Source of the DNA: TPA_inf: Saccharomyces
Taxonomy: Eukaryota
Assembly (NCBI GenBank): GCA_000146045.2
Contig: BK006949.2
Location: 576,001 to 640,000, forward strand
Reading direction: 5' to 3'
DNA length: 64,000 nt
The notes below the pieces were generated by a model. The model was not told where the DNA came from. It made no database searches and saw nothing but the letters and a program-made list of their open reading frames with translations. Position 1 is the stretch's first letter. Each line of letters opens with the position of its first letter. A program made the position numbers and the translations under genes. Of the stretch, positions 5,366-46,631 are shown piece by piece.

Positions 5366-6061
5366 CACTCGCAAGAGTAATCTCAATAATAATTTCCGTC
5401 ATTAGCGATTATAGCATGAAGGGAGGCCGAGAGGCCGCTTCTGCGGTATGATAATTAAGTGGTAGTGCAGAGACTCAAAAGGGCGCTGAGAATCTATTAG
5501 AAATGCCATTAAGTGCTTTGAACTCTTGTAGCATGTCTGCTTCTGTAGATATAACACTCTGATGCAGATTTATGAATAATTTCATCACTCGATGTCATCA
5601 GCGTCTTCCTTCATTTGATGCTTTTTTGAAGTTTTCATGGCATGATTTAGCATTTGAAATATAATGAGAAAAGAGCCCTTTAACTTACAGAAGTAAATGT
5701 ACAAAACTTAATCGGAGGAAGAAGCTTAAACATACAAAAACAACAGCAGGATGACTACAAAGAAGCCGTTAAACAAATCTTTTTGTCTCCGTTACTAATT
5801 CACTAATATAGTAATTTTGCTAACCTCTATCGTCATTGAAACTGATTTGTCCTCGAGAAGGCAACAATCAAACTGCAAAAGAAACGTAAAGCAACGACTT
5901 GAACAAGTAATCGCTAACCACATATTGAGATAAGCAGATAATCGCTGTTAAACGTCGTTGATACAGTCAGTCAATATGAATAGTGTAGTATTTTATCGTT
6001 AGGTTCACCTTCCAAATATTCGTTAGATAAAGATGTTTCGGTTTTTTATTTCAACAAAAGA

Positions 6062-6134
6062 GCCTTGTTGGCGCAATCGGTAGCGCGTATGACTCTTAAT
6101 CATAAGGTTAGGGGTTCGAGCCCCCTACAGGGCT
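6062..6134 (+). tRNA. tK(CUU)P: tRNA-Lys (anticodon CUU), tK(CUU), 73 nt, no intron
   Basis: GCCTTGTTGGCGCAATCGGTAGCGCGTATGACTCTTAATCATAAGGTTAGGGGTTCGAGCCCCCTACAGGGCT. A box TGGCGCAATCGG, B box GGTTCGAGCCC. The anticodon CTT lies in the loop gactCTTaatc. Confidence 0.95.
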
Positions 6135-6137
6135 TTC

Positions 6138-7061: not shown

Positions 7062-8042
7062 TCACCAATTTCTTACAGAATCACATACAACTTCGTAAAC
7101 TAGCCAACTCACTGCAGTTGAAGGAACAACTTTAAAAAGGTTTGCAGCTAAGCCTTTGTAGTAACCGCTAACGCCTTCTGCTCTGCCGATTGTCACGAGC
7201 GCATCCCAGACACTCGTGTATCTAAATCCCAGTTCATTTCCGCCCATTGCGAGAACTTGAAATCTTCTTCTTAGCAGATCAAAGGGATAAGTGATTGTTT
7301 GCGCAACCCCTCCACTTATGGCGCCAATTGTTAATTTATAGAGGTTACTTTTCCAGGAAGGCTGAGCATCGGAGGAATTGACACCGAATTCTCTCAATTG
7401 TTCGTAAACTGCAAAGTTTAGTGCTACATATGGAACAACACCAAGACTCGTTGGCCATACACCCCTATATAATCCCCTGAGACCGCCTTCGAGTCTGTAA
7501 GTTTCGCTTAGTAATTGCCAGATCCCCGGAGGCTTTGATATACTTTTTGCCTTTGAGCGGTTTAAACTGCTCAAATTTGCTGTCTGAATCGATAGTCTTG
7601 TTTTGATCAAGTCCAACGGGTAAGTAGCCACCACACTACAACCACCACACAATGCACCACTGAATAGTCTTTGGGTGTTCGTTAGTTGTTCTTGTCCATT
7701 ATTGCCATTTACATGGAATAACTTTTTCTTACAAGCTTCGTATACTACAAACTGGACTGCACTATAGGGAAAAATTCTTATGCAGTTCAAACCATTTCCT
7801 CTGAATAAACCTTTGGTTCCCTCCTCATGGTAAACCTGCCGTATAGAGCTAAAGATACCTCGGTTATAAGAAGTGGTTGAACTTTGAACTTGCAGCAGTA
7901 TTTTAACTCTCTCAAAAGGTGAAACAACGGTTCGGGAAACCGCGCCAGCTACTCCACCAGCTAGAAACGCAATATTTGAATCCTGCTTGAGAAAATCTTT
8001 AATTGAGTTCGGCTGCTCGAGGACGGTCAGTACTTCTGCCAT
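7062..8042 (-). CDS. YPR011C: YPR011C, mitochondrial carrier family protein (three Mito_carr repeats), 326 aa
   Basis: Track ORF is 363 aa. The first ATG at 8042 (MAEVLTVLEQ...) gives 326 aa. It has a tripartite carrier repeat with PFERVK, PLDLIKTRL and PFDLLRRRFQ signatures. Confidence 0.9.
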   Translation of the reverse strand: MAEVLTVLEQPNSIKDFLKQDSNIAFLAGGVAGAVSRTVVSPFERVKILLQVQSSTTSYNRGIFSSIRQVYHEEGTKGLFRGNGLNCIRIFPYSAVQFVVYEACKKKLFHVNGNNGQEQLTNTQRLFSGALCGGCSVVATYPLDLIKTRLSIQTANLSSLNRSKAKSISKPPGIWQLLSETYRLEGGLRGLYRGVWPTSLGVVPYVALNFAVYEQLREFGVNSSDAQPSWKSNLYKLTIGAISGGVAQTITYPFDLLRRRFQVLAMGGNELGFRYTSVWDALVTIGRAEGVSGYYKGLAANLFKVVPSTAVSWLVYEVVCDSVRNW

Positions 8043-8631
8043 GTTAGCGAAATAACGATTAAAAAATTTGAAAGTCAATACTATGAAACAAGGAAACGAG
8101 CAACTTGGTATACTTCCCTCACCTTTGTTAAATTCACTTGGCCTTACTGGCAATCATAATCATTTTGACGAACTGCGGACATCGAGAGTACCCTGCAAAT
8201 ATATCTAGAAAAAGAGGTAAAAAAATATTGAAGGGTCAACCTGAAAAAAATTGAAAAGTGAAAATAGATCTGCTGATAAATAATGCACGGCTTGCATCAA
8301 GTGATCACATGGAACTTTCCCAATACCTCAACTACGCATTTTCCCTTGCATATTATATCATCATCCATCTTCTTTGCCTCTCATATATTTACGAAATAAT
8401 ACATAAACATAAAAACGTCTTTGTGCGTCCAAGTAAACTTGAAGACGCACTCCCGTTATATAAAACTGGGAAGAACACTAACAAAGAAGGTGACTTGCGC
8501 TTAATTAGTTTTATTCCCTTGCTTCTAAAGTCCGTAAAACATTCTATTAGAGTCTATACATAGTTTTGCCTTACCTTTGAATATGAGTTCTAAAAATTCC
8601 ATTGCAATAAAGCTTTCCGTTCCTATTGTTT

Positions 8632-9585
8632 CTATGTAGTGTTTAAGACTTTGTTTCTTTTCCTTTCATGGCTTTTCAAATGTCTCAGCATATTGCTTTT
8701 CACATTGAAGGATTTTGTGCAACCCTCCCAAGTACATTTGAAAGGAGTATCTCCCGTATGAATTAAGTAATGTGTCTTCAGCGTTGAGGGCCTCGAACAA
8801 ATTTTTCCACATACTGGGCACTGCTTTCTCAGCTTTGTGGATGATATTCGGGTGTCAGTTTTCCAATCAGAAAATGTTGCTGAACCGTTCAACACGGCAC
8901 CAGGTTCGCTTTTTGTTCTGCCGTTACTGGCTTCCTGCATGGTTGGAAGTACGCCATACCCAGGTGGGACTGATTTTGGCCTATCGTGGCATAGCTCTAA
9001 GGCAGCGTTTGGGTGACTCGCCATTGATATTGCAGTGAAGTTAGGTTCGGAGGCAATTGTTATTGGTTCTTTGTCGTATGGTGTCAATGGTTTATATACT
9101 GTTGGGACCATGACTGGCATCATCAAGGGAGCAGAGGAGGTCAAATGAGGAGACTGGCTATGTGGTATTGGTTGCTGACTTTCCGTATAGTAGATAGGAT
9201 ATTGATCAGATGTTGCGTTCATGGAAATTGGGGTGTAGATCTCATTAACAATGGGTACAACATTCATGCTTTGATAAACTTGCTGTGGAGGGAATTGAAC
9301 CCTTGAATCTACGTTAGGTGGTGTATTATTTTCAAAATTAGGCAAAAGGGATGAAATTGGTGGTAAGTTTATTTTCGTACTATTATAACATTCCCGTTCA
9401 TTTTTGTAGCTATTGTGGCCATAAAATTGAGTCCCCTTACCAGTGCTCAGCTGATCAACTGCGGACACTTGAAGGGGGAGGTTCGATTTATAATTGACTG
9501 TACACATTCCTATATTAGGAGATCTTGACTTGTCTGTATATGATGATTGTTTTTCTGAACTTTGCTTTGAAAGGGAAAAATTCAT
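8632..9585 (-). CDS. CMR3: CMR3 (YPR013C), C2H2 zinc-finger protein, 317 aa
   Basis: ATG verified at 9585. The C-terminus has two C2H2 fingers: CPVCGKICSRPSTLKTHYLIH and FKCTWEGCTKSFNVKSNMLRHLKSH. Confidence 0.9.
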   Translation of the reverse strand: MNFSLSKQSSEKQSSYTDKSRSPNIGMCTVNYKSNLPLQVSAVDQLSTGKGTQFYGHNSYKNERECYNSTKINLPPISSLLPNFENNTPPNVDSRVQFPPQQVYQSMNVVPIVNEIYTPISMNATSDQYPIYYTESQQPIPHSQSPHLTSSAPLMMPVMVPTVYKPLTPYDKEPITIASEPNFTAISMASHPNAALELCHDRPKSVPPGYGVLPTMQEASNGRTKSEPGAVLNGSATFSDWKTDTRISSTKLRKQCPVCGKICSRPSTLKTHYLIHTGDTPFKCTWEGCTKSFNVKSNMLRHLKSHERKRNKVLNTT

Positions 9586-12500
9586 GTAATTTACTTTAGT
9601 GGCGTTTACTGCTATTTTTCGAAGGTAGGTGATGAACTTGTGTTATAACTAAGAAGCTCAAAACTAAAAGTATACTAATGTTTGAGGAATTATTGTGAAG
9701 CCATAGAACAATAAAAAGCTAACAATTGTATCTTTCGTTCAACTTGTCAAACCCTGACAGGCATATAAAAGAGGTATTTTGAAACATCAACATGTAGTAG
9801 TCACATATATAGCAAAATAGTAAGTAAGGAAAAAAAGAAGGCACAGAGAATACAACAATAATGATGAAGGCACACGACTGCCCTTTCCGGGCCACCTGCA
9901 GATCTGTAAGGTAGTTCAAATGACGTTCTCGCGCGGGTTTCTTACTTATGAAACTTTAGGGACATAAGTCGGGAACCTGATGCATCATTCTTTATCTTGT
10001 TTTTTGTTGTTGTTTGAGTTTCTTGTACAGAATAATACGCAGAATTAAAGCGGAAGTTAAAAAACAGATCGTCTTGATCTGCCCTCAAAACCAGTATCCA
10101 CTGAAAACCTTATTTCCCACCGTAAATGGCAATCACTCGTAGCTCAAGGTGGAATGCTCCCGTAAGGATATTTCCTATATGAGATAGTCCCGATCCTGAG
10201 AAGAGGGATCGCCGTCATTTTATTCTTTAACCCCGAGAAACGGCATCTCTCACCTGATTGTTCTCAAGATTGCTGCAAAACCCAGATATACTTTTAGGTA
10301 CGGAGCGTACGCGATGTATATGGATTGATTTTCACATGTATCGTTTATGAGTACTTGACTGCACCTCGTGTCGGAAGATTTTCCAATCGGGCTTTTTTTC
10401 AATCTTGAAGGCCCTCCTTTTCATTTCCATTTGCTCTGACATTGCGGCTATGCATCACAGGCAAAAGCTGAAAAGGAAATTTTGTAGCGTATCGGTTTAC
10501 TGCACAGTCTCAGACCCTTTGTAGTACTGTTACCTGGAAGAATAGTAGGTGCGTACAACAGTGATTATGTAGTAGTATCTACTGAAGAGCCTACGAGCGA
10601 AAAAAAAAAAAATTATCGGCTACATTACGTTGTTTCCTACGGAGACAAGAACCAATATAAGCTGCAAAAAATCTATGAGCATTTTAAGTTTCCGATACAA
10701 CAAGATGTATGCGTACTATTCACGTCGTGTTATATTGCTCACGTAACAACTTCTATGACAATAATAAAAAATAACCTTTCCATTGTATCATTAAGGTTAT
10801 CTACGGAGGATTGTCAAACCTAGCGGATATGAAATGTACTTGATTCCTAATTCGGGTTTATTTAGAGTTCAGACTATGTGGGTCATTTCTTATGCTAATA
10901 ATAGGCACTGAGGTAAGTCAAAATAGCGACACTCAATTACTGTTGAATGGGAAGAAAAAACCGAGAAAGGGATACAGAGATCTTGCCCACGCCTTTTTTT
11001 CAAAAAGAGCCCTTCGCAAGGTTGCTCAACGGGATTGTCATAGAAAGAAAAAATCAAAGCCAATAACTACAAGGCCAAAAGTAATGGTAGGGAGCTACTA
11101 CAAAGTGGGCTCAGCCTACCTGAAGAAAATAAACAATTAATGGACAAGATCTGTTAGCGGACATACAAGAGATCAAATTACCTTCTGGTTAATGCTGTAG
11201 GCGAAGCAAACCATTCAATTGAGGAAACCTTATTCCCAATTGCGCTTTTGCTCCCTGGAAGCCTATAACAGCGTGTGGGCAAATAAAGTTGTTTTTCGCC
11301 CTCAGCGACTTTACTTCGGAAACTGAAGAGCGGCTAGAAATTTCGCAGAAAAGATTTTCCTTTGAGGATAGAAAAATGAAAAAAAGAAATTTATCTTTTT
11401 TCACAACAGGTGCTGCTTTTTCCTCACGTATGCACAGAATGCAAAGTACAAGATTTGTAATACGCGACTCCGCGCAGCTGTACTCTACTCCCAAGTCAGC
11501 GGAAAAAATGCAAGACATACAGAAAGTTGCCGCTTTATTGGCTATTTTTTTGGGCGACAGCCCTGGCTAGCCTCCTCATTGGGTTGTAGAGGAAACAAAA
11601 CTGAGATGTCTTTGGACTAATGTCAGCAATAATAACTCGTAAAATCAAGTCAGAATTTCTATCCATTCAATAGGTATTCATTGTTTATGAAACTAAGAAA
11701 CGAATGTAAATAATTCTGGGATATAACAAATAGTTCCCTTTGGATTACTTAAAACATAGTACTGCAGCTAAAATTTGTAAAAATGTTAACGTTTCTTTGC
11801 GTTGAGTAACTTGACCTTCACACGTAGTTGCAAGTACCGATGCAAAATTTTTACACTGGTGACAACCTTAATGGTATAATCCAATTAGCGACATCACCGA
11901 GAAAGTATCCAAGTCGATTTGATGAATAAAATAATAACTTAAACATTCAACGCCGTTTGTTAATACTGACACCTGAAGGAGAGTCAAAAAGGCAAACTTT
12001 CTTGCAACAATCATAAAGCTAAGGCACCGCTAGAGCTTACGATATTGGCCGCAAAAATAACTATTACACTTTTTCGTTTCTGTGGAAATGTAGGGTGATC
12101 AACTGGCTAATTGCTGCCTTTTAAGATATGCGGAGGAGATTGTGCAGCCATTTTCATTTTAGCGACTCATTGATGGAAGTATTCAAGTCAAGATCACTTG
12201 TTTAAATTCAAGACTACTGTTTAAATTCATAATTTTTTATTGCTATCTTTTTTTTACCACAGATCTGACCGACACTCCCGCTTATCGCCCATTGCGGCAT
12301 ATACTTAGGCAAGTCAAAAGCCGAGGACAGCAGTTGAAGACAGGCTACAATTTCTATAGTAGCTTTTTTTCGTTCCTAATTTCTCCAAACACTTTAAGTT
12401 TCTTGAAACGTAAATGATACTGCGAAAAATTTGATTTCGTTCTGAAGATACTATCAATTAAACGTGCACTAGGTGCTGTTCCCTCGATGAGCTGCCGCGC

Positions 12501-14282
12501 TAACCCGTACCCCCCAATTTTGAGCGATTTTAGTGAGTTGTGTTATATAATCCAGGGGTACTCTGCTCCGCGATTTGTGTGATAGCAGCCATAAATGCCC
12601 CACGCCAAAGTTCCACGTTCAAATAAAACTTACATCAAAAATTCTTTCTCTTTGAAGTAAATATGCGTGGGGATTGCTGAATAAGCAGCCCAGTGAACAT
12701 CAGCGCTTTCTGTAAATCATTTATCAGCTAACAATAATTACATAATATAAACCTCCAATAACTGTCCTGCTAGTGGCACGTTGTTGGCTGTCAGAAACGA
12801 AATGTGGGTCCTATTTACCCCTTGGTTTTAGTATGGGAGCACGAATGGTAAACACCTTCTCATAAAATAACTGATAACGTCTTAAAGCGACCAAATACTT
12901 TATTGTTGCGGGCAAACATTATTGTTAAATGCGTGGTCTAGAAGTAAAATTTTCTGCATAGTTCACTGTTATGTAAATTTTGAACTTGAAATCTTTTCTT
13001 AGAAAGAGTCTGTCATCCTTGGAAACATTGCTGACCAAGAATACGATATTGTGAGAAGACATTGTACCCAAAAAAAATTTTTCATTCCTATAGTTTGGAT
13101 TGGAGATGATTCAAACACAGCATATTCATGTGTTACCTTCCCGGTTATGCACGAGGTCAATGAGACCGTTCCCTTGTGTTGTACCAGTGGTAGGGTTCTT
13201 CTCGGTAGCTTCTCCGCAATAAGAATGATTGAATCATATTGTAACATTAGATTTTGGCCTTTCACTAATTACCGTAGGTAATTTTGTTGGTTAAACTGAC
13301 AAAGAATAAGAGTTTAACCAACAAAATTAAGTCTTGGTGCATTGAATGGAAGAAAAGATGATACAACGCCAACCTAAAGAGTGGAAAGCGTTCTTTCAAA
13401 TGAGGGTAGTAGGAAATTCAGCGGGAAAGTTTGAAAATGTGGTGGTAAAACAATAATCCTGGTTTTTCTTTGTTATCCGATAGGAAATTTATCCCCTTCT
13501 ATGTTCCACTAATCACTTCATGGGTTGACTATCACTAGCGCATGAACTCCTTTTGACCAATAATAAGCACAATACTAAAGGTTGTGGTAATTGATAAATA
13601 AAGACTTCCATTGAAATGACAGAAACGATATGTATGAATCAGAATATCAAGCATGGATATATCATTGCGCTCAAACTTAGTCAAATTCCTTTGTTTTCTT
13701 AGTTTGTTATGACTCCCTTGACGTAATTATTCTTGCATTAATTTTGAGCTTCTGTAAACTTCATTGTTCCAATGGATCATTATATATTAACAACGTTGGC
13801 ATATACGTGACCGCAATTTGAACTACCTACATTTAACATACTTTTGTAGAGGAAAGAGGCTGTTTGTTCTTTAACCATGATTATACCAATTTAACCTTTT
13901 TTTTTTTTTTGATAGTGAACTGCATACTAGTCAGGTAATTGAATTCCTGGTACAGAGATTCATCAAGACATCCGTGTCGGCAACGTTGTACTAAATGAAA
14001 AGGTCCTTTGTCTTACGAACTAGACAGAATAAAATGTATCGTGCGGCAGTATAGAACCGTATTACAAATGCTGATGCATTCGCAAACAAATTTCTTGTAG
14101 AAATTATAATTCGAACAAAAATCCTCTCACTATTCAAAAATCGGAAGTCAGTAAAAATTGATTGTTGGCTACATGTAATATATTATATGGAACTAATACA
14201 TATCTATACTCATTTTACTTGGTAAAAAGTGTCACACCTACATCAAAATCACACTGAAAACAAAATATTCTAAACAATGCTT

Positions 14283-15026
14283 TCACTGATGTTTTTTCTT
14301 TGCTATTTTCTTTTGATGGGTTCTTAAATGCCTTAACATGTTACTCTTGACATTGAAAGATTTGTTGCAATGCTCCCAAGTACATTTGAAAGGTGTGTCT
14401 CCCGTATGTATTAAGTAATGAGTCCTCAGTGTTGAAGGTCTCGAACAAACCTTCCCACAGATAGGACATTGTTTCCGTAGCTTTACCACAGCGCGCAGTT
14501 GCTTTTGTATAAGATCTAAGTCGGTTTGTGTTTGGGATAATAGCGTCCCAGGATTTTGCCCTATATGCACATTCGGGAGGGAGTACTGCTCGTTGCTCAC
14601 CGCTCTGTGGTTTTCCTCCTGAAAATGCTGCATTGATGGAGGTACAGATTGGGCAGTATAAGAGGAAGCTGCCGTTGAATAAATAGGGCAACAAGATTGA
14701 CGTTCAACGAACGTTAAAGGGAAAGGTTGCGGTGTTGCTATAACCGGCGAAAAGATAATAGAGTTGGGACTTGATCTCCATACGGGATCCTCTGTCTGAT
14801 GCAGAGAAGAAGGTGCGTAATGGTAAGCGGGAGGTGGTAGTGCGGCCTGGTTTATTTCAGGAGTAAGTGGAGCGTGCATAATCGACGAACAAGGTGGAAG
14901 ATGCACTTCCCTTTTGGTCGTGTTCGAGACTTCCTTTGAAGATTGCGCATAGGATCCCCCTATGTTAGACGATGAACATTTCATTGGGCTACAAAGCATA
15001 GATTCTAGCGTTTTTGTTCTCCACAT
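14283..15026 (-). CDS. YPR015C: YPR015C, C2H2 zinc-finger protein and paralog of CMR3, 247 aa
   Basis: ATG verified at 15026. The C-terminal CPICGKVCSRPSTLRTHYLIH and FKCTWEHCNKSFNVKSNMLRHLRTH fingers are near-identical to CMR3, including at nucleotide level. Confidence 0.9.
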   Translation of the reverse strand: MWRTKTLESMLCSPMKCSSSNIGGSYAQSSKEVSNTTKREVHLPPCSSIMHAPLTPEINQAALPPPAYHYAPSSLHQTEDPVWRSSPNSIIFSPVIATPQPFPLTFVERQSCCPIYSTAASSYTAQSVPPSMQHFQEENHRAVSNEQYSLPNVHIGQNPGTLLSQTQTDLDLIQKQLRAVVKLRKQCPICGKVCSRPSTLRTHYLIHTGDTPFKCTWEHCNKSFNVKSNMLRHLRTHQKKIAKKKHQ

Positions 15027-15720
15027 TTAATTAGTGTTGAAGATGAAAATTTATGTATATTAAAAGTTAGAAACGGGTCAATGAAGACGTTTGCTTATCG
15101 TATTGGATCCTTGCAATGCCCTCCAAAAAGAAGAAAAAAGTTGGACCAAGAAAACAATTATAATTTTGTAATTTGAAATATCTACCAATGAGGTCAAAAG
15201 AGCGACAACAACTAGCGCTTATATAATATAAAGAATTCTTGGGACTGTATCTCATGGCAACCAAATGCCGTTCATATTTAGGGTTTCAGTGGGAAAAGAT
15301 TTCCGGTGCTTTACGCTCCTTGTACAAACAAGTGCTGCGAAACTTTCTGTGGAAATCGTGCCTTTTAAACCATTAGTGAAGGCTCCAGATAGAGTTGTCA
15401 CAGAAAACAGCGTGGCGGACTTATTTTTTTGCAACGATTTTCTGGAAACAATAGAGGAAGAATTTTTGGCGTACGAAAAGGAACGATGCCCCCAACACCT
15501 CAACAATACTACGGAAGTTTCTTCGAGCGGAAAAACATCGAAATACTAGCTGTTTCTGGATATGAGAGTGGGTATGCGTGGCAATGGAACTCAGGGAGTT
15601 GTTGCTATTTCAGTGAGTACGATGGATCAGGGTGTTTATATCTCAAGAACTACCAAGTTGAAGAGATGAAACGTAGTTCGCTTGATAGCACATAAATGGA
15701 CGGCTGACTTGTTGTACACC

Positions 15721-15743
15721 ATATATATATATATATATATATA
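15721..15743. repeat. (AT)11 dinucleotide microsatellite
   Basis: atatatatatatatatatatata lies in the YPR015C upstream region. Confidence 0.9.
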
Positions 15744-16331
15744 ATTTTACGGCTCACTTCTGTACCGCTTGTGAAAATCTTACCGCACAACCCCCGGTGT
15801 TCTATTAGCTTTGTTCGATTTTATTAATCTTTGCCAAGAGATACTACTCTCCGGGTTCTGGTGGAGACAATAGTATGTCCTAGCAGCTAGACAAAAAAGC
15901 CTTCAAATGGTCTACGTGCGGTGCAATTTTTCTTGGAGAAGTTCTATATTGTCTAACAGATACTTGGAACTGAGCAAGTTGTCAGAATAGTCGGAGAAGC
16001 GGACGGAAAATCCATATTATGCAAAGAATTTGCTTAGAAACCCGTTACATATGCTTCGAACAAAGTGACTACATGTTACAATTAAGACGCCTACTTAAAC
16101 TGCAATGAATAGTCACCCATAGGTATAAGAAAAAAAAAAAAAATAAAAGAGTACATAATATACATACAACTAAAATTAAAATGCATAGAAACCTAAGAAA
16201 AAATATTTGTTATACCAAAAAAAATACCACAAATGATACGTAAGAAGATTATTGCAACATGGGGACTCTTTCGCATACAACTGTAAACAGACTTGAGGAA
16301 GGAGGGGAATCCCCTCAGGAGTACCTGACAT

Positions 16332-17069
16332 CTATGAGTAGGTTTCAATCAAAGTATCACGTAGGTTACCTGAAATGGATTCTGGTTGGGCATCTTGCAA
16401 GCGGAAAATACTTTCAATAACACTCAATTCTGGGGCTGTAGTATCCAGACCTGTAACTGCCAAGTAATCGTTCACAACCATACCGGCACCGACAACTGAA
16501 CTACCACGGTTAACGGTACCAGCCACCAAAGGAACTTGTAATAAGGAGGACAATTCTTCTTGATCTTGGACACTTGTTTGTGGATGCACTAACCCACCTT
16601 GATTACTTAAAGAACAATATGACCCAACTAAGATATTACCTGATATGGTTTGACGGAAGACCTCAACGCCTAGTACATCACTTATCAATTCTTCAGTTTC
16701 TCTGTCGATATCTGGATGCACTAAAGCAACGTAATCATTACAACAGATGACGTTACCCAAGGCAGATAGTCTTTCCTCTACCCTTTGAATCTTAACGGAA
16801 TCCGGCAAACTATTTCTTAAATGTTGTAATTCTTGATCAGTAGTTTGGGTTGGAACTAGCAGACCTCTACGGTTACCCGCGGTCATTCTACCGATGATAC
16901 GCGTACCAGCAATAGTGGTATGAACGATGGGAATAGCATCTCCTAATTCAGCTTCAAATGCAGAGTAAAAGTTTTCAGAACCACCAACAGCAACCAAACA
17001 GTAAGTATTCGTTAATTTGGAGAATACACCGATTTCATTGGAGTTTTCAAATTGAGTCCTGGTAGCCAT
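16332..17069 (-). CDS. TIF6: TIF6 (YPR016C), eIF6 60S subunit biogenesis and anti-association factor, 245 aa
   Basis: [35 protein letters not shown]... is a full-length eIF6 fold. The ATG at 17069 was verified. Confidence 0.95.
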
Positions 17070-27910: not shown

Positions 27911-30900
27911 CTAAACATCAAACATGTTATGACAAGTGGGTGACGTTTTCCCTAGGCTCCTTTCCAAACAATTATCGAAGAGTTTTCCGAATTCGCGCCC
28001 TAAATCCCAGTAGCTCTTGTTGAAAATATCTCTCATAAACTGCATCATCCCGCATAGAAAGTGGGTATTAGAAATATGTTGAAGTAAACTCGCTTTTGCC
28101 CAAACGTCATTCTGAAAGCTAACTACATCGAGTGAGCTATCCACATATAAGTTCCGATACATTCTCAATAGGTAAACTTCAAAACTTTCTATTGGAATGT
28201 AATTGTTCTTTTCCTTTAAATTGTTGTTTGCAATCGTCGATCCATTATTATCAGTATTGCCTAGAATGTTTCCACCATTGCTGTCATCTGGTTGAAAGCA
28301 TTCATCCTTTGAGGCTTCTGTATTATCCCATATGCTAACTTCACAGCCATGTAATGCAAAATTACAAGACCAAATTAGGAGTGAAGTTAATGCAATCGCA
28401 TAGGGTCTAGTAATCACAGGATCAGAATTTATATTGTAGCTCTTCACTACGGTTGGAACGTTATTTTCCTTAATGATAAACATTTCAAATAAGAACTGGA
28501 AGGCATAGACTACAGCTACACCCCCATTGTAGGGGTCCTTAGCGAACTGGAGAATCCTGCGACTGATCATGTCATATTCATCGCGACCAATTGGTACATT
28601 CATTCTCCAAGGTGCTCCTGCATATATGTAATAATCATGATGAAGAATACGTAGGACAATTTGAGAGATATGAATAACGGGAATTTTACAATTTGACGGA
28701 TTATCGGAGGAAAGCAAGTCCAAATCATCATCACATAGTCCATCTCCATTATCCTCGTCAATTTTTCTGTTCGTTAGTGTCTCCTCAGATGGAGTACTTA
28801 TCCTACATGCTTTCGGATCAGTGCAGCTTTTCTGAACTTCGTGAAGCCAATAGTTCATTGCAAATGATAAAATATCTTTCCATGAAAGGCCTAAATGATC
28901 AGTGATTCCGCCCCTAAAGTTAGTAATGAAATAGTCACCATTAACTTCCTCTTGACATTGAAATAAGATCGAAATTATCCCCGCCAAAAGAATCTTTTTA
29001 CCAAAAAGACTCTGAATATTCCAATCTGTAGTGCTTTCCAAGTCTGTAGGGGTACTCTCTATTCCACCATTGTTGACTTTGTTTCTCCGTATATTATTAT
29101 TTCGTAAGATTTGAATGACATTTTTCATTAATTGCATTAACGCAGACAAAAATGTATTATTCTCATCTCTCTTTGTGCTGCCATACCCATGCTCCATCAG
29201 AGTTTCATAGCTCAAATCATAAGATTCCCACACTTGATCTGGACAGGGTAAAGTTAGTTGAATCTGATTGCTATTAATAAATAAATTCCAGTATCCAAAC
29301 ACTACAGCATGTGTAGTGTCCATATAAAATGCGTAGAAAGCTATTCTTTTCAACATTTCAAAATCAATCCATCTTTTATAAACTTCTTGTGGGTCTTGAA
29401 TTGAATTTTCCCCAGAGGTTTTGCCGGTTTTGACCATTAAGGGATGGCCGCCTAAAGAGGGCGTTCGCCTTAGCAATTGAATGGTCGTTCCGTGATGTAA
29501 AAAAGACCTTTCATGTAAATACCTGTTCGTACTTGTTTTTTCATATCCTTCGACTAATAATAAACTTTGAATGATGTAGGTTTTAGAAGGTGGTTGAAAA
29601 TCAGCATGAGAAAAAATTATCCATCTTAGAGGACCACAAATTGGGTCACTAATCTGTTCACGATACTCGCTTCCCAAAAAACTTGCGCCAGTCATAATTA
29701 GTGCCAAATTCAAAATTGCAGGCTGTTTATCAACGTGAAAAGAGGGTTTGTGAAGCAGACCGTATTGTGGATGGAAGTTCAACCAGAAGGATTTTAACGA
29801 TTTGTGTATAGATTCAATAGAGACATAGCGTAATTCTGGAACAAATGAAAACATTTCTTGACATTTTTCTTTTGATATCTTATACTTTGTTAAGGGATCC
29901 GGATGGAAAAATGACGGGACACTTTTCATAGAGTGACGCAACTGTTCCTTGTAGTTCAGAGAGGAATTGTTTCCTACTCCTGAATCTTTAGATGATCTCC
30001 GTTTTAGCTCGTTGATATTAAGCTTCTGACTGGAAAGATTGTCCTTCACTGAAGTACTGGGGTTATCGTTGAACTTCGGTTGTGCTTTGGGAATTTTAAT
30101 GTTATCTTGTGGTAACTCAAACATAACTGGAGGATTCTGGAACCCTTCGTCTTGTTGAACAGGTTTTTCATTAGGTGGGATTGTATTCTTGTCAGAAAAT
30201 GTATCTTCAATACTTACTTGCGGGGCTTCAGAAAGTTCTTGCATGAAAGATTGTAATGGGTCGCTGTTCAAAAAATTTGTAGAAAAAAGGTCCTGCATAA
30301 CTGACAAATTAGCACCGCTAGAGGAAGATGTTAATGGATCTCCAAATGGATTCTGGGGTGGTAATTGTTGTTGTTGTTGTTGTTGCTGTTGCTGTTGCTG
30401 TTGCTGTTGGGCAAGCTTTTGCTGCTGAAAGTACTGTTCCTGTTGTTGATCCTGGGTAAGTGGCTGGAGTGGCTGCTGATATGAACTACTTGCAAAATTT
30501 CTGTCTTGATATCGTTGCTGCTGCACGGCTGGATTGATATTCATATTTTGGTCATTGCCATTACCGTTGTTATTCGCTGCATCCACTTCAAAACCATTAA
30601 CGCCTGTACGGTTATCAAATATCAAATTAAAAAATTGATTACCATTTTGACCGTTGTTCCTTATTCGAGGATCATACGATGGAAAAGTAGGACTTGCTTG
30701 CTGTGGATGCATTTGTTGCTGCAACATAGGTTGTTGCAATGGTGCCCGCAGTTGCTGCGGGAATTGAAGTTGCTGCAGTTGTTGAATTTGTTGTGGTTGT
30801 TGTGATTGCTGAACCTGTTGAGGTTGTTGAGCCTGTTGAAGAAAAGGACGAAATTTTGATTCTTGTGTGATAGATGGTGGTGGATTCACAGAATTTTTTA

Positions 30901-31312
30901 TTAAGTTAATCGTAGAAGTTCCACTTTGCGTAGAAAGGGGTACTTCACTGGGATTATATGGTGCATTTTTGGAGAAGTCCTTATTTGATGAGGAAATCTG
31001 GTCCTTGCTTGGCCGACTTAATCTGTTTTTCACCTTTGAATGCCTCTTTTCATGTCTGATCAGTAAATCTTTCCTTACAAACGTTTTATTGCAAGGCGCA
31101 TTTGTAGTAGGAAGCACGTAAGAACAAACATATATCTCTTTCGGCCAGTGGTTTAGCTTGTGTCTTGATAAATGTTCCTGACGTGAGAAAGTTTTATTAC
31201 ATTCGGGATGTGGACACCTAAATCTTTCAGCAGGAGAAGAGCTTGAATTTGGTGATAAATCGTTATCATTTTCCCTTTTCCGGAGCCTGCCAGCCAACTC
31301 TTTGCCGTGCAT
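27911..31312 (-). CDS. SDD4: SDD4 (YPR022C), C2H2 zinc-finger protein with a Q/N-rich region and fungal transcription-factor middle domain, 1133 aa
   Basis: The track start at 31321 is TTG. The first ATG is at 31312 (MHGKELAGR...). It has two N-terminal C2H2 fingers ([23 protein letters not shown]; [18 protein letters not shown]) and a Q16 run. Confidence 0.85.
30365..30412 (-). repeat. SDD4: (CAA/CAG)n trinucleotide repeat encoding Q16 in SDD4
   Basis: The plus strand reads ttgttgttgttgttgttgctgttgctgttgctgttgctgttg, within a broader Q-rich block spanning 30180-30850. Confidence 0.9.
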
Positions 31313-32825
31313 TTTTGCCAATATTAAGAGCTAGCTTCACTGCTTTATTGGTCACTTTTTATAATTATAAACATAGTAGATGAGTCCTAGAATCTCAATA
31401 CAGCCTTTAAAACTATTAAAGAAGCTGTTCGCAACTCACAAAAAAAATAAAAAAATAAAGCAGAACGAAAAAAAAAAAAAACAAAAAAAACAGTTAACTA
31501 TTCTAATTACTTAGAATCTTTAAAAGTCTTACTGTAATTCGATCAGTGGAGAAGGAAAGCGCACATGTGATATCTCGCAATTTCTTCTCAAACTACCTTG
31601 ACAGTAATTTTTCTTAAAAACGATTGGCTCCTACATGAAATCCACGAAAAAGCACGGTAGTCTTGTTAGAGGACACTGATATACGAGGAAAGAATTGATA
31701 AAGCGGAAGGTCTTTGGAAACAATTCAAGACCGATGACATAACTTTTAAGAGGTAGGTGGGGAAGCCCATATGGAGAATTTTAAAAGCAATAGGGTGCTC
31801 GCTTCCAAGCAAATTAGTACTTTTTTTTTTTTTTTAGCAGGAGAATAAAGCTTCAAGCTAATGCACTAGAGTTCGAGGTGCATCATTTCAGTTTTTTTTG
31901 CTAGGGCATAATTGATCAGCCTGTTAAACTCATTGCATAGTCAGTAAATTTACAATCCCCGAAAATAATGGTTCCCTTAAATAAGCGAGTTAAGGACTTT
32001 TTTTTTTTTTTACAGCAGTAGACCAACCTGTACATGTTTCATAGTCAAGTAATAGCCTGACGAATATCAAACGTTTCCTCTTTTTCATTCCTTTCCTTCA
32101 AATGCCTTGGGTTGAAAGGATAGACGTGTATTTAATGCAAGCTCTATCTATAATGAGTGTTATTACAATTGTTATGCTTCTGCATTGAGCGATGAATAAA
32201 TATAAACAACTCCTTTTCGAACAACTTGTAATTATCCTACGCTTTTGCCTGAGGTCCTTTTTAGCCATTGACAACAAGCAAGTGTCTTTCTGTATGAAGT
32301 AAACCCTGCATAAAGTTGTTTTTTGCTGCGTCAGAGGGTTAATGACTTCGAAAGACCCTTTTCTCATATAAGACGCGCCACAGAAGAATGCGCACGACAA
32401 CGGACTATTTTAGATTATATAATGGCGCGTGTGATGCTGCTTTAATCATGTTGCATAGACCATGCAATTACACTAAAAATATAAAACAAGGAGCCCTGGA
32501 CAGAACTTGGTAGTGTGCAAACGAGTAAGTGAAGATGATAGTACATTATATACGAAGCTCTTAGTAAGCTCATACTAGATGCGAAACGATGGATACGTCA
32601 GAAAAATAACAAAAATAAAATATAATCATTAATGATGTTTTAACTCGACAAGCCCCTTTCAGAGCTGCCATTACCCTAAGAACCTTGCAAAGAGAATAAA
32701 CTTGAATTTCGTAAAGTGCCACGAACAGTGTCCATATTCTTACACGAGATATTCTGTGAAGAGTTATTGCATAAATACGGAAGAACTAAATACTAGAAAT
32801 AATCCCAAGCTAGAATATAAACGTC

Positions 32826-46539: not shown

Positions 46540-46631
46540 TGCGAATTCTGTGGATCGAACACAGGACCTCCAGATAACTTGACCGAAGTTTTTTCTTCAG
46601 TCTGGCGCTCTCCCAACTGAGCTAAATCCGC
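46540..46631 (-). tRNA. tF(GAA)P2: tRNA-Phe (anticodon GAA) with a 19-nt intron, 92 nt
   Basis: Minus strand reads GCGGATTTAGCTCAGTTGGGAGAGCGCCAGACTGAAG[AAAAAACTTCGGTCAAGTT]ATCTGGAGGTCCTGTGTTCGATCCACAGAATTCGCA. This is the classic yeast tRNA-Phe. The intron is at about 46576-46594. A Pol III T6 terminator lies on the minus strand (plus-strand A6 at 46530-46535). Confidence 0.95.

Follow-up and report, generated by a model that had tools for sequence, protein, structure and literature searches.

The genes CMR3 and YPR015C of Saccharomyces cerevisiae are already annotated and described as a pair, and the similarity of their zinc fingers has been on record since the 1990s. Deletion of both genes alters 426 genes, more than 80% of which are unchanged in either single mutant, and these data point to a partly overlapping function of the two proteins (PMC2386056). 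PBM-derived position weight matrices exist for CMR3 and YPR015C (PMC3566590), JASPAR MA0435.1 is mentioned in PMC3575287, and a promoter model assigned the YPR015C motif to the consistently repressive class (PMC12188188). The C2H2 repressor Mig1 carries a repression domain at residues 481-504, DSQVQELETLPPIRSLPLPFPHMD (PMC10163088). What is added here is a test for gene conversion, a dating of the duplication by synteny, the assignment of the YPR015C finger as the derived copy and a short N-terminal motif shared by both proteins.

The gene pair and its DNA similarity

Both genes are contained in the window, that is, the whole stretch of 64,000 nucleotides that was analysed (Table 1). Exact protein look-up identified the 317 aa ORF as Cmr3p of S. 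cerevisiae S288C and the 247 aa ORF as YPR015C. The two minus-strand ORFs lie exactly where the preliminary description had placed them, and the separation of about 5.7 kb given there corresponds to an offset of 5,648 bp in register in the blastn alignment. The genes are adjacent, co-oriented and mutual closest relatives in the genome, as is characteristic of tandem duplicates; the searches with either protein returned no other S. cerevisiae protein at E<=1e-10.

Table 1. Coordinates of the features of the CMR3/YPR015C locus, counted from the first nucleotide of the window
Feature	Position	Strand	Basis or remark
CMR3 / YPR013C ORF, 317 aa	8632..9585	minus	ORF list, exact look-up, Pfam
CMR3 side of the sole DNA-level match, finger block	8658..8836	minus	blastn
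CMR3 residues 72-82, INLPPISSLLP, short linear motif	9340..9372	minus	alignment, shuffling, pLDDT
Spacer between the genes, 4.7 kb	9586..14282		upstream region of CMR3; short ORFs only
YPR015C ORF, 247 aa	14283..15026	minus	ORF list, exact look-up, Pfam
YPR015C side of the sole DNA-level match, finger block	14306..14484	minus	blastn
YPR015C residues 165-183, predicted helix directly before finger 1	14478..14534	minus	AlphaFold2, alignment
YPR015C residues 41-51, VHLPPCSSIMH, same short linear motif	14874..14906	minus	alignment, pLDDT

No convincing ORF is found in the ORF list for the spacer, the Rfam scan of the window yielded two tRNAs only and no RNA family match in the spacer, and blastn detected no similarity between the upstream regions of CMR3 and YPR015C. 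The length of the spacer is 4.2-5.2 kb across all six Saccharomyces species compared (S. cerevisiae, S. paradoxus, S. mikatae, S. kudriavzevii, S. arboricola and S. uvarum), and blocks that do not vary among the six species are situated at 9911-10141, 10274-10373 and 11393-11472. With the finger block as tblastn query one other C2H2 match was obtained in the window, at 31022-31222; being only 31% identical and belonging to an unrelated C2H2 protein, it was rejected as an extra finger copy. Extra or decayed finger copies were likewise not found by tblastn in the window and in 12 loci from relatives.

At the DNA level the two genes share a sole match. When 7900-11500 was compared with 11501-16500 by blastn (word size 7), a 179-bp ungapped HSP with 79.3% identity, 37 mismatches and E=1.5e-40 was obtained, whereas the remainder of the ORFs and their flanks was at chance level. 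The similarity, which exceeds chance by far, is confined to the finger block; upstream, it reaches about 3 nt beyond the conserved KLRKQ. The finger DNA had been described as near-identical and as conserved at nucleotide level. The quoted 21-mer is indeed present at 8725 and 14373 and the quoted 10-mer at 8751 and 14399, but the identity over the whole match is too low for that wording. At the protein level 50 of the 60 residues of the finger block are identical, and BLASTP gave 66% identity over 85 aa (E=1e-39).

A module of two C2H2 fingers had been claimed for the C-terminus of each protein and was recovered as two stretches each of Pfam PF00096 (zf-C2H2, E=5e-10 and 1.4e-11). Both proteins contain two C-X2-4-C-X12-H-X3-H units: C256-C259...H272-H276 and C284-C289...H302-H306 in CMR3 (at about 8668-8820), and C187...H207 and C215...H237 in YPR015C (at about 14316-14468). 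The linker that joins the fingers reads HTGDTPF in both proteins, which agrees with the conserved H-T-G-x-x-P-(F/Y) pattern, and does not vary among 23 family members. In the AlphaFold2 models of both proteins the fingers form two beta-beta-alpha units (pLDDT 72-95). The helix predicted before finger 1 of YPR015C (pLDDT about 63-77) is situated within a 30-aa stretch that is invariant across the genus, and the CMR3 model lacks an equivalent. In the alignment, helix positions -1, 2, 3 and 6 are alike in both proteins, with R, S, T, T in the first finger and V, S, N, R in the second. As all canonical base-contacting positions are identical, both proteins should, as a prediction from the sequence, read the same core DNA site.

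Silent sites and gene conversion

The preliminary description had suggested that gene conversion could be the reason for the high DNA identity of the fingers, and had named saturated synonymous sites as the observation that would speak for an ancient duplication without conversion. In such a process, ongoing or recent conversion would homogenise the finger-encoding 3' ends and leave the 5' halves free to diverge. The confinement of the DNA similarity to the finger block fits this explanation, as do a 21-nt identical run and a core with 45 of 48 identical nucleotides in the S. cerevisiae pair. The synonymous sites of the 60-codon finger block are, however, saturated: pS is 0.73 in the S. cerevisiae pair (dN 0.085, JC-corrected dS about 2.6) and 0.82-0.87 between the paralogs of the other five Saccharomyces species. 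Identical codons at identical amino acids (27/50) are within the expectation from codon usage (21.8±3.3, P=0.076), and the 21-nt run exceeds by a small margin only the length expected for sequences encoding the same peptides with yeast codon usage (P=0.03, uncorrected). S. cerevisiae CMR3 and S. arboricola YPR015C, a cross-species pair for which conversion is impossible, have a comparable 20-nt identical run. The 79% identity of the finger DNA is very likely due to the conserved amino acids and the shared codon usage, and not to conversion.

The comparison across species leads to the same result. In the finger block 142/180 bases are identical within S. cerevisiae and 128-142 in the 35 other cross-paralog pairs; the within-genome value is equalled by two cross-species paralog pairs and surpassed by the comparison of CMR3 with its Kazachstania africana counterpart B01990 (143/180). 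Eleven finger residues are paralog-specific, all of them fixed across the six Saccharomyces species, and an NJ tree of the 62-aa fingers groups the sequences by gene and not by species (bootstrap 99% for YPR015C and 77% for CMR3). Since the fingers group by gene, the 11 residues are fixed and the within-genome pair shows no excess of identity, gene conversion is not supported, and we regard an ongoing or recent homogenisation of the 3' ends as extremely improbable. The 11 diagnostic residues of YPR015C were found only in Saccharomyces YPR015C orthologs, and the CMR3 finger states are common to most family members; judged by these residues, the finger of CMR3 is the conservative copy and that of YPR015C the derived one.

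A more restricted event could be envisaged, namely one very short conversion of some tens of bases from CMR3 to YPR015C, which would have occurred in the S. cerevisiae lineage only and would have affected part of the 16-codon core HYLIHTGDTPFKCTWE. With 45/48 identical nucleotides the S. cerevisiae pair ranks at the top of 36 cross-paralog pairs for this core, the other 35 having 36-43 and the next best 43 (best-window P 0.029, uncorrected for the choice of window and species). Moreover, YPR015C of S. cerevisiae and of S. paradoxus differ silently at five positions of this core, and at four of these the S. cerevisiae gene matches its own CMR3. All four matching changes are, however, transitions, and the twofold sites at which they occur show homoplasy across the genus. 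The silent differences at I23, D27 and T28 fall inside the tract, so that the event would have to be split into tracts of about 11 and 21 nt. Sequences of 79% identity are also a poor recombination substrate in yeast. Even such a short conversion is consequently considered quite improbable.

Age of the duplication

The order TIF6 - YPR015C - gap of 4-5 kb - CMR3 - mitochondrial carrier is kept in S. paradoxus, S. mikatae, S. kudriavzevii, S. arboricola and S. uvarum, all of which have two finger genes from TIF6 to the carrier. K. africana and K. naganishii likewise carry two finger genes at the TIF6-carrier locus. In the non-WGD yeasts Zygotorulaspora mrakii and Torulaspora delbrueckii there is one finger gene, directly after TIF6, and tblastn revealed no second finger relic within ±10 kb. 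Z. mrakii also has a 238-aa gene in the interval from TIF6 to the finger gene; it was considered as a decayed second copy and rejected, as it is fingerless and of low complexity. This distribution, with a single gene in the non-WGD yeasts and two in Saccharomyces and the two Kazachstania species, bears out the local tandem duplication that had been proposed. A third K. africana copy adjoins MCM4-RLF2 on the sister track from the genome duplication, which sets the tandem pair apart from that event. CMR3 and YPR015C were rejected as a WGD ohnolog pair because TIF6 and the carrier flank both of them on a single track.

We propose that a single ancestral gene, whose product would have been a small two-finger transcription factor of the C2H2 type and which would have been situated between TIF6 and a YPR011C-type mitochondrial carrier gene, was duplicated in tandem as a whole before the Saccharomyces radiation. 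Probably the duplication also predates the Saccharomyces-Kazachstania split. Alternatively, the tandem pairs of the two genera could be the result of parallel independent duplications, the one in Saccharomyces being younger and yet pre-genus. The deep nodes of the finger tree (bootstrap <=28%) do not separate one from two duplications and give no support for joining YPR015C to K. africana B02000 or K. naganishii D02280. The restriction of the YPR015C diagnostic residues to Saccharomyces, the inversion of one K. naganishii copy and the single copy beside the carrier in V. polyspora and N. bracarensis would also agree with separate events. On the other hand, K. africana and Saccharomyces share the gene order and a spacing of about 4.5 kb, the silent sites between the copies are saturated in both genera, and in both the carrier-proximal copy is the conservative and the TIF6-proximal copy the divergent one. 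Parallel duplications thus appear the less likely course of events, to which we nevertheless assign some weight. It is far less probable that the duplication was limited to the finger-encoding 3' segment, which became joined to unrelated 5' coding sequence, in which case the N-termini would never have had a common ancestry. The end of the DNA similarity next to KLRKQ and the failure of the N-terminal profiles to align (hhalign probability 0.2%) could be taken in favor of such a fusion, which we nonetheless hold to be very improbable: both N-termini contain the motif LPP(I/C)SS(L/I) in colinear position, it is also found in the outgroup genes and in the sister-track copy of K. africana, and positional orthologs across genera have N-termini that are equally unalignable.

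The N-terminal parts

The N-termini of both proteins are predicted to be disordered, and the profile-profile comparison between them gave no signal. They had been described as completely diverged, which is correct as far as alignability is concerned but overlooks the one short colinear motif left in both (Table 1). INLPPISSLLP of CMR3 and VHLPPCSSI of YPR015C are each invariant in the six Saccharomyces species. The motif is present in 46 of 83 family members, compared with 0.02 expected from shuffling, with the family consensus (V/I)xLPPISS(L/I)(V/I)P, and the order of motif and fingers is the same in the single-copy outgroup genes and the sister-track copy. L74, P75 and S78 of CMR3 are invariant in the MAFFT alignment, as are L43, P44 and S47 of YPR015C across 23 aligned family members. 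At the motif the pLDDT reaches 61 in CMR3 (surroundings <50) and forms a bump of 58 in YPR015C. Between the Saccharomyces and Kazachstania copies, blastp of the N-termini recovered the short motif only, and positional orthologs align no better across genera in this part than the paralogs do.

The proposed comparison of dN/dS in Saccharomyces gave an omega of 0-0.016 between orthologs for the finger block and of 0.13-0.27 for the N-termini (0.19-0.27 in CMR3 and 0.13-0.16 in YPR015C). Both N-termini are under purifying selection. The neofunctionalisation of the N-terminal halves suggested in the preliminary description is not supported by these values, nor by the equally unalignable N-termini of positional orthologs across genera, nor by the overlap suggested by the double mutant.

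As a whole, an old tandem duplication followed by purifying selection, with no gene conversion, is very likely the origin of the present pair. Since the duplication, strong purifying selection has kept the 60-codon DNA-binding module nearly unchanged, and the disordered N-termini have drifted beyond alignability apart from LPP(I/C)SS(L/I). Where a short domain is under strong constraint, 79% DNA identity and identical runs of 20 nt can arise without conversion, and a comparison of paralogs across species quickly exposes such conversion-free similarity. Beyond housekeeping, the result for CMR3 and YPR015C is of little weight; the shared LPPISS motif, however, provides a testable lead on how two poorly characterised transcription factors act, namely by corepressor recruitment.

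Comparison with known systems

The pair resembles cases of concerted evolution by gene conversion in that the paralogs are adjacent and co-oriented and their similarity is limited to one segment, but it differs from them by lacking low silent divergence, an excess of within-genome identity and clustering by species. With regard to the fingers, the 62-aa block matches solved C2H2 arrays (ZNF568 5v3m, YY1 1ubd, WT1, KLF4) at E values of 1e-37 to 1e-11, although CMR3 and YPR015C have two fingers only and the family itself has no structure among the listed matches.

Concerning the mode of action, Mig1 is the system for comparison. Cmr3 and Ypr015c are not close relatives of Mig1, as neither protein search returned any further S. 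cerevisiae protein at E<=1e-10, and their recognition-helix residues are probably those of a different family. The motif, too, is located differently, at the extreme C-terminus in Mig1 and N-terminal to the fingers in Cmr3 and Ypr015c. Like these two proteins, Mig1 has two classical C2H2 fingers, the second with C-X4-C spacing, a long disordered remainder and a short proline-leucine motif, ETLPPIRSLPLP (core TLPPIRSL). LPPI(R/S)SL, preceded by T in many family members, amounts to 7-8 residues in common with the Mig1 domain, which is too short for statistics.

By analogy, both proteins may be repressors that recruit a general corepressor via a retained Mig1-like motif, and they would compete for or share sites while differing in their regulation and in the remaining N-terminus. 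Corepressor recruitment by this motif is put forward tentatively; the repressive class given to the YPR015C motif in the promoter model (PMC12188188) is an indirect hint at repression. Equally speculative is the wider reading in which the whole Cmr3/Ypr015c family in the Saccharomycetaceae consists of dedicated repressors and the paralogs bind the same site with identical base contacts, dock the same corepressor and have partitioned their regulation. The invariant helix before finger 1, specific to YPR015C, would be one sign of partitioned regulation in such a repressor family. If true, a Mig1-like repressor family of this kind would explain why the double deletion has a much larger effect than the single deletions.

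Identity and architecture of the two finger genes

Exact-sequence look-ups identified the two open reading frames on the minus strand, which lie exactly where the preliminary description had placed them, as CMR3 and YPR015C (see table). The window therefore belongs to yeast chromosome XVI, where both genes are annotated. The pair is an ordinary and already known feature whose members have been studied together before: as far as it is cited in PMC2438615, a classification of 1997 noted the similarity of the fingers. In the single deletions 79 and 185 transcripts were changed, compared to 426, mostly new ones, in the double deletion, suggesting overlapping roles (PMC2386056). Overexpression of YPR015C causes a G2/M delay through RAD9 (PMC2438615).

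Features of the window and their coordinates
Feature	Position	Strand	Basis or remark
CMR3/YPR013C ORF, 317 aa	8632-9585	-	exact-sequence look-up, Cmr3p of S. cerevisiae S288C
YPR015C ORF, 247 aa	14283-15026	-	exact-sequence look-up, YPR015C
Motif INLPPISSLLP, CMR3	9340-9372	-	invariant across the genus
Motif VHLPPCSSIMH, YPR015C	14874-14906	-	invariant across the genus
Modelled helix, YPR015C residues 165-183	14478-14534	-	AlphaFold2 model
Invariant spacer block	9911-10141		six-species comparison (Saccharomyces)
Invariant spacer block	10274-10373		six-species comparison (Saccharomyces)
Invariant spacer block	11393-11472		six-species comparison (Saccharomyces)
tRNA, 92 nt	46540-46631	-	Rfam only, absent from ARAGORN output
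tRNA Lys (CTT)	6061-6135	+	Rfam and ARAGORN

At the C-terminus of both proteins lie two classical C2H2 fingers with an HTGDTPF linker between them. AlphaFold2, run on family alignments, predicted two beta-beta-alpha units in each protein (pLDDT 72-95) and disordered N-termini (pLDDT mostly <50). The BLASTP alignment of the two proteins was limited to the C-terminal 85 residues (66% identity, E=1e-39), and the sole DNA similarity between the two loci, flanks included, was an ungapped match of 179 bp (8658-8836 and 14306-14484). The identical strings that had been quoted are real (a 21-mer at 8725 and 14373, a 10-mer at 8751 and 14399), and the similarity itself is genuine, far beyond what chance would give; however, to call the finger DNA near-identical was an overstatement, given 79.3% identity and 37 mismatches.

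The window also codes for a third C2H2 protein, in a large ORF of some 1136 aa (27911-31321, minus strand; fingers near 31022-31222). With only 31% identity between its fingers and the CMR3 finger block (E=8e-4), this protein is not closely related to the pair.

Silent sites and gene conversion

The finger block, i.e., the conserved C-terminal segment with both zinc fingers, comprises 60 codons, and 50 of the 60 amino acids are identical between CMR3 and YPR015C. Nei-Gojobori counting gave pN=0.08 and pS=0.73, so the silent sites are at saturation, the very outcome by which, according to the preliminary description, gene conversion would be refuted. As codon null, codons were drawn independently for both peptides with the usage of 16 long ORFs in the window. 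At the 50 identical residues 27 identical codons were observed compared to 21.8±3.3 predicted (P=0.076); under the same null, the longest identical run of the S. cerevisiae pair (21 nt) and its best stretch of 16 codons (13 identical) each have an uncorrected P of about 0.03.

Gene conversion between the fingers had been proposed, and we compared the loci with their orthologs in S. paradoxus, S. mikatae, S. kudriavzevii, S. arboricola, and S. uvarum. The pS between the paralogs was 0.73-0.87 within single species and 0.69-1.06 across all 36 combinations of CMR3 with YPR015C. S. cerevisiae CMR3 is identical to its own YPR015C in 142 of 180 bases; the same count was found for S. kudriavzevii CMR3 with YPR015C of either S. 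cerevisiae or S. arboricola and for S. cerevisiae CMR3 with K. naganishii D02290, and S. cerevisiae CMR3 shares 143 of 180 bases with K. africana B01990. An identical run of 20 nt even connects S. cerevisiae CMR3 with S. arboricola YPR015C. Since pairs unable to exchange DNA resemble the pair within one genome, gene conversion is unnecessary and unsupported, and we reject it. The 11 residues by which the finger blocks differ are fixed throughout the Saccharomyces species compared, and a neighbor-joining tree of the 62-aa block groups the YPR015C fingers at 99% and the CMR3 fingers at 77% bootstrap. The only residue of doubt is a 48-nt core with 45 of 48 bases identical in the S. cerevisiae pair versus 36-43 in other pairs; this core is broken by three silent differences, and its matching sites are homoplastic twofold transitions.

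Origin of the pair

Gene order is the same throughout the six Saccharomyces species, running from TIF6 through YPR015C, a gene-poor spacer, and CMR3 to a mitochondrial carrier gene. The K. africana locus has the same layout, and K. naganishii has two copies, one of them inverted. In Zygotorulaspora mrakii and Torulaspora delbrueckii, which lack the whole-genome duplication, a single finger gene directly follows TIF6, and one copy beside the carrier is present in V. polyspora and N. bracarensis. K. lactis KLLA0F22319g has been described as related to Cmr3 and Ypr015c alike (PMC13050194). One gene in Z. mrakii and T. delbrueckii versus two in Saccharomyces supports the tandem duplication claimed earlier, which certainly predates the genus Saccharomyces. 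A third copy in K. africana adjoins MCM4-RLF2, on the sister track from the whole-genome duplication, so the tandem pair goes back to a local duplication of its own. The neighbor-joining tree of the short finger block does not separate a duplication shared by Saccharomyces and Kazachstania from one that happened twice.

At the Z. mrakii locus (L007, 8679-9395) a 238-aa gene is annotated between TIF6 and the finger gene. Its product is of low complexity, rich in cysteine and arginine, with neither fingers nor a Pfam match; the gene call appears spurious. At the T. delbrueckii locus (L010, 7676-8182) a called 168-aa product adjoining DSS4-TIF6 matches the Pfam Cas12f1-like/TnpB family and possibly represents part of a TnpB/Fanzor-type element.

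Upstream of CMR3, the spacer (9586-14282) measures 4.7 kb, which is unusually long for yeast. Its length is conserved, with about 4.6 kb in K. africana and 4.2-5.2 kb in the six Saccharomyces species; in V. polyspora and N. bracarensis, about 9 kb upstream of their copy are free of genes. The last of the three invariant blocks falls inside a 109-aa ORF (11189-11518, minus strand) that is probably no gene. Elsewhere in the window, the 92-nt tRNA probably contains an intron, because it is reported by Rfam but not by ARAGORN.

Constraint on the fingers and the N-termini

Between orthologs, omega of the finger block is 0-0.016. Conservation is nearly as strong in the single-copy genes of distant yeasts: the CMR3 block shares 90-92% of its amino acids with those of Z. 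mrakii or T. delbrueckii, but only 83% with its neighbor YPR015C. When the 11 differences were polarized against 81 family members, the YPR015C states were confined to Saccharomyces YPR015C and the CMR3 states were carried by most relatives; by this polarity the CMR3 finger is ancestral and the YPR015C finger the derived copy. According to the alignment, helix positions -1, 2, 3, and 6 are the same in both proteins (R,S,T,T in finger 1; V,S,N,R in finger 2), so both should recognize the same core DNA site.

The N-terminal omega is 0.19-0.27 for CMR3 and 0.13-0.16 for YPR015C, and both N-termini are under purifying selection. Overall, the earlier observation was partly confirmed. That the N-termini had diverged completely holds insofar as profile-profile comparison of the two found no similarity, but a short colinear motif is kept in both. 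In the window and in the homologous loci fetched from other yeasts (L006-L010), the form (V/I)xLPP(I/C)SS(L/I)(V/I)P recurs in the disordered N-terminal regions of the two paralogs and of most Saccharomycetaceae relatives. Of 83 family members, 46 have the strict pattern, compared to 0.02 expected from shuffled sequences, and most of the remaining ones have degenerate forms. MAFFT aligns the motif on its own, and in both models it falls on a local confidence bump within the disordered region. Being shared and colinear, the motif argues for a duplication that covered the whole gene and not just the finger segment, with later drift of the disordered region.

YPR015C additionally has a stretch of 30 aa just before finger 1, GQNPGTLLSQTQTDLDLIQKQLRAVVKLRKQ, which is almost invariant in the six species (a single T/S change in S. 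mikatae) and has no counterpart in CMR3. It is modelled as a helix (residues 165-183). Its role could be an extension of the DNA-binding domain or a part in pairing.

A full-text literature search for LPPISS brought up no paper on yeast. A promoter-model study counts the YPR015C motif among the consistently repressive ones (PMC12188188). The shared N-terminal motif bears a resemblance to TLPPIRSL, the core of the Mig1 repression domain as mapped, DSQVQELETLPPIRSLPLPFPHMD (PMC10163088). Corepressor docking is taken as a lead and not as a finding.
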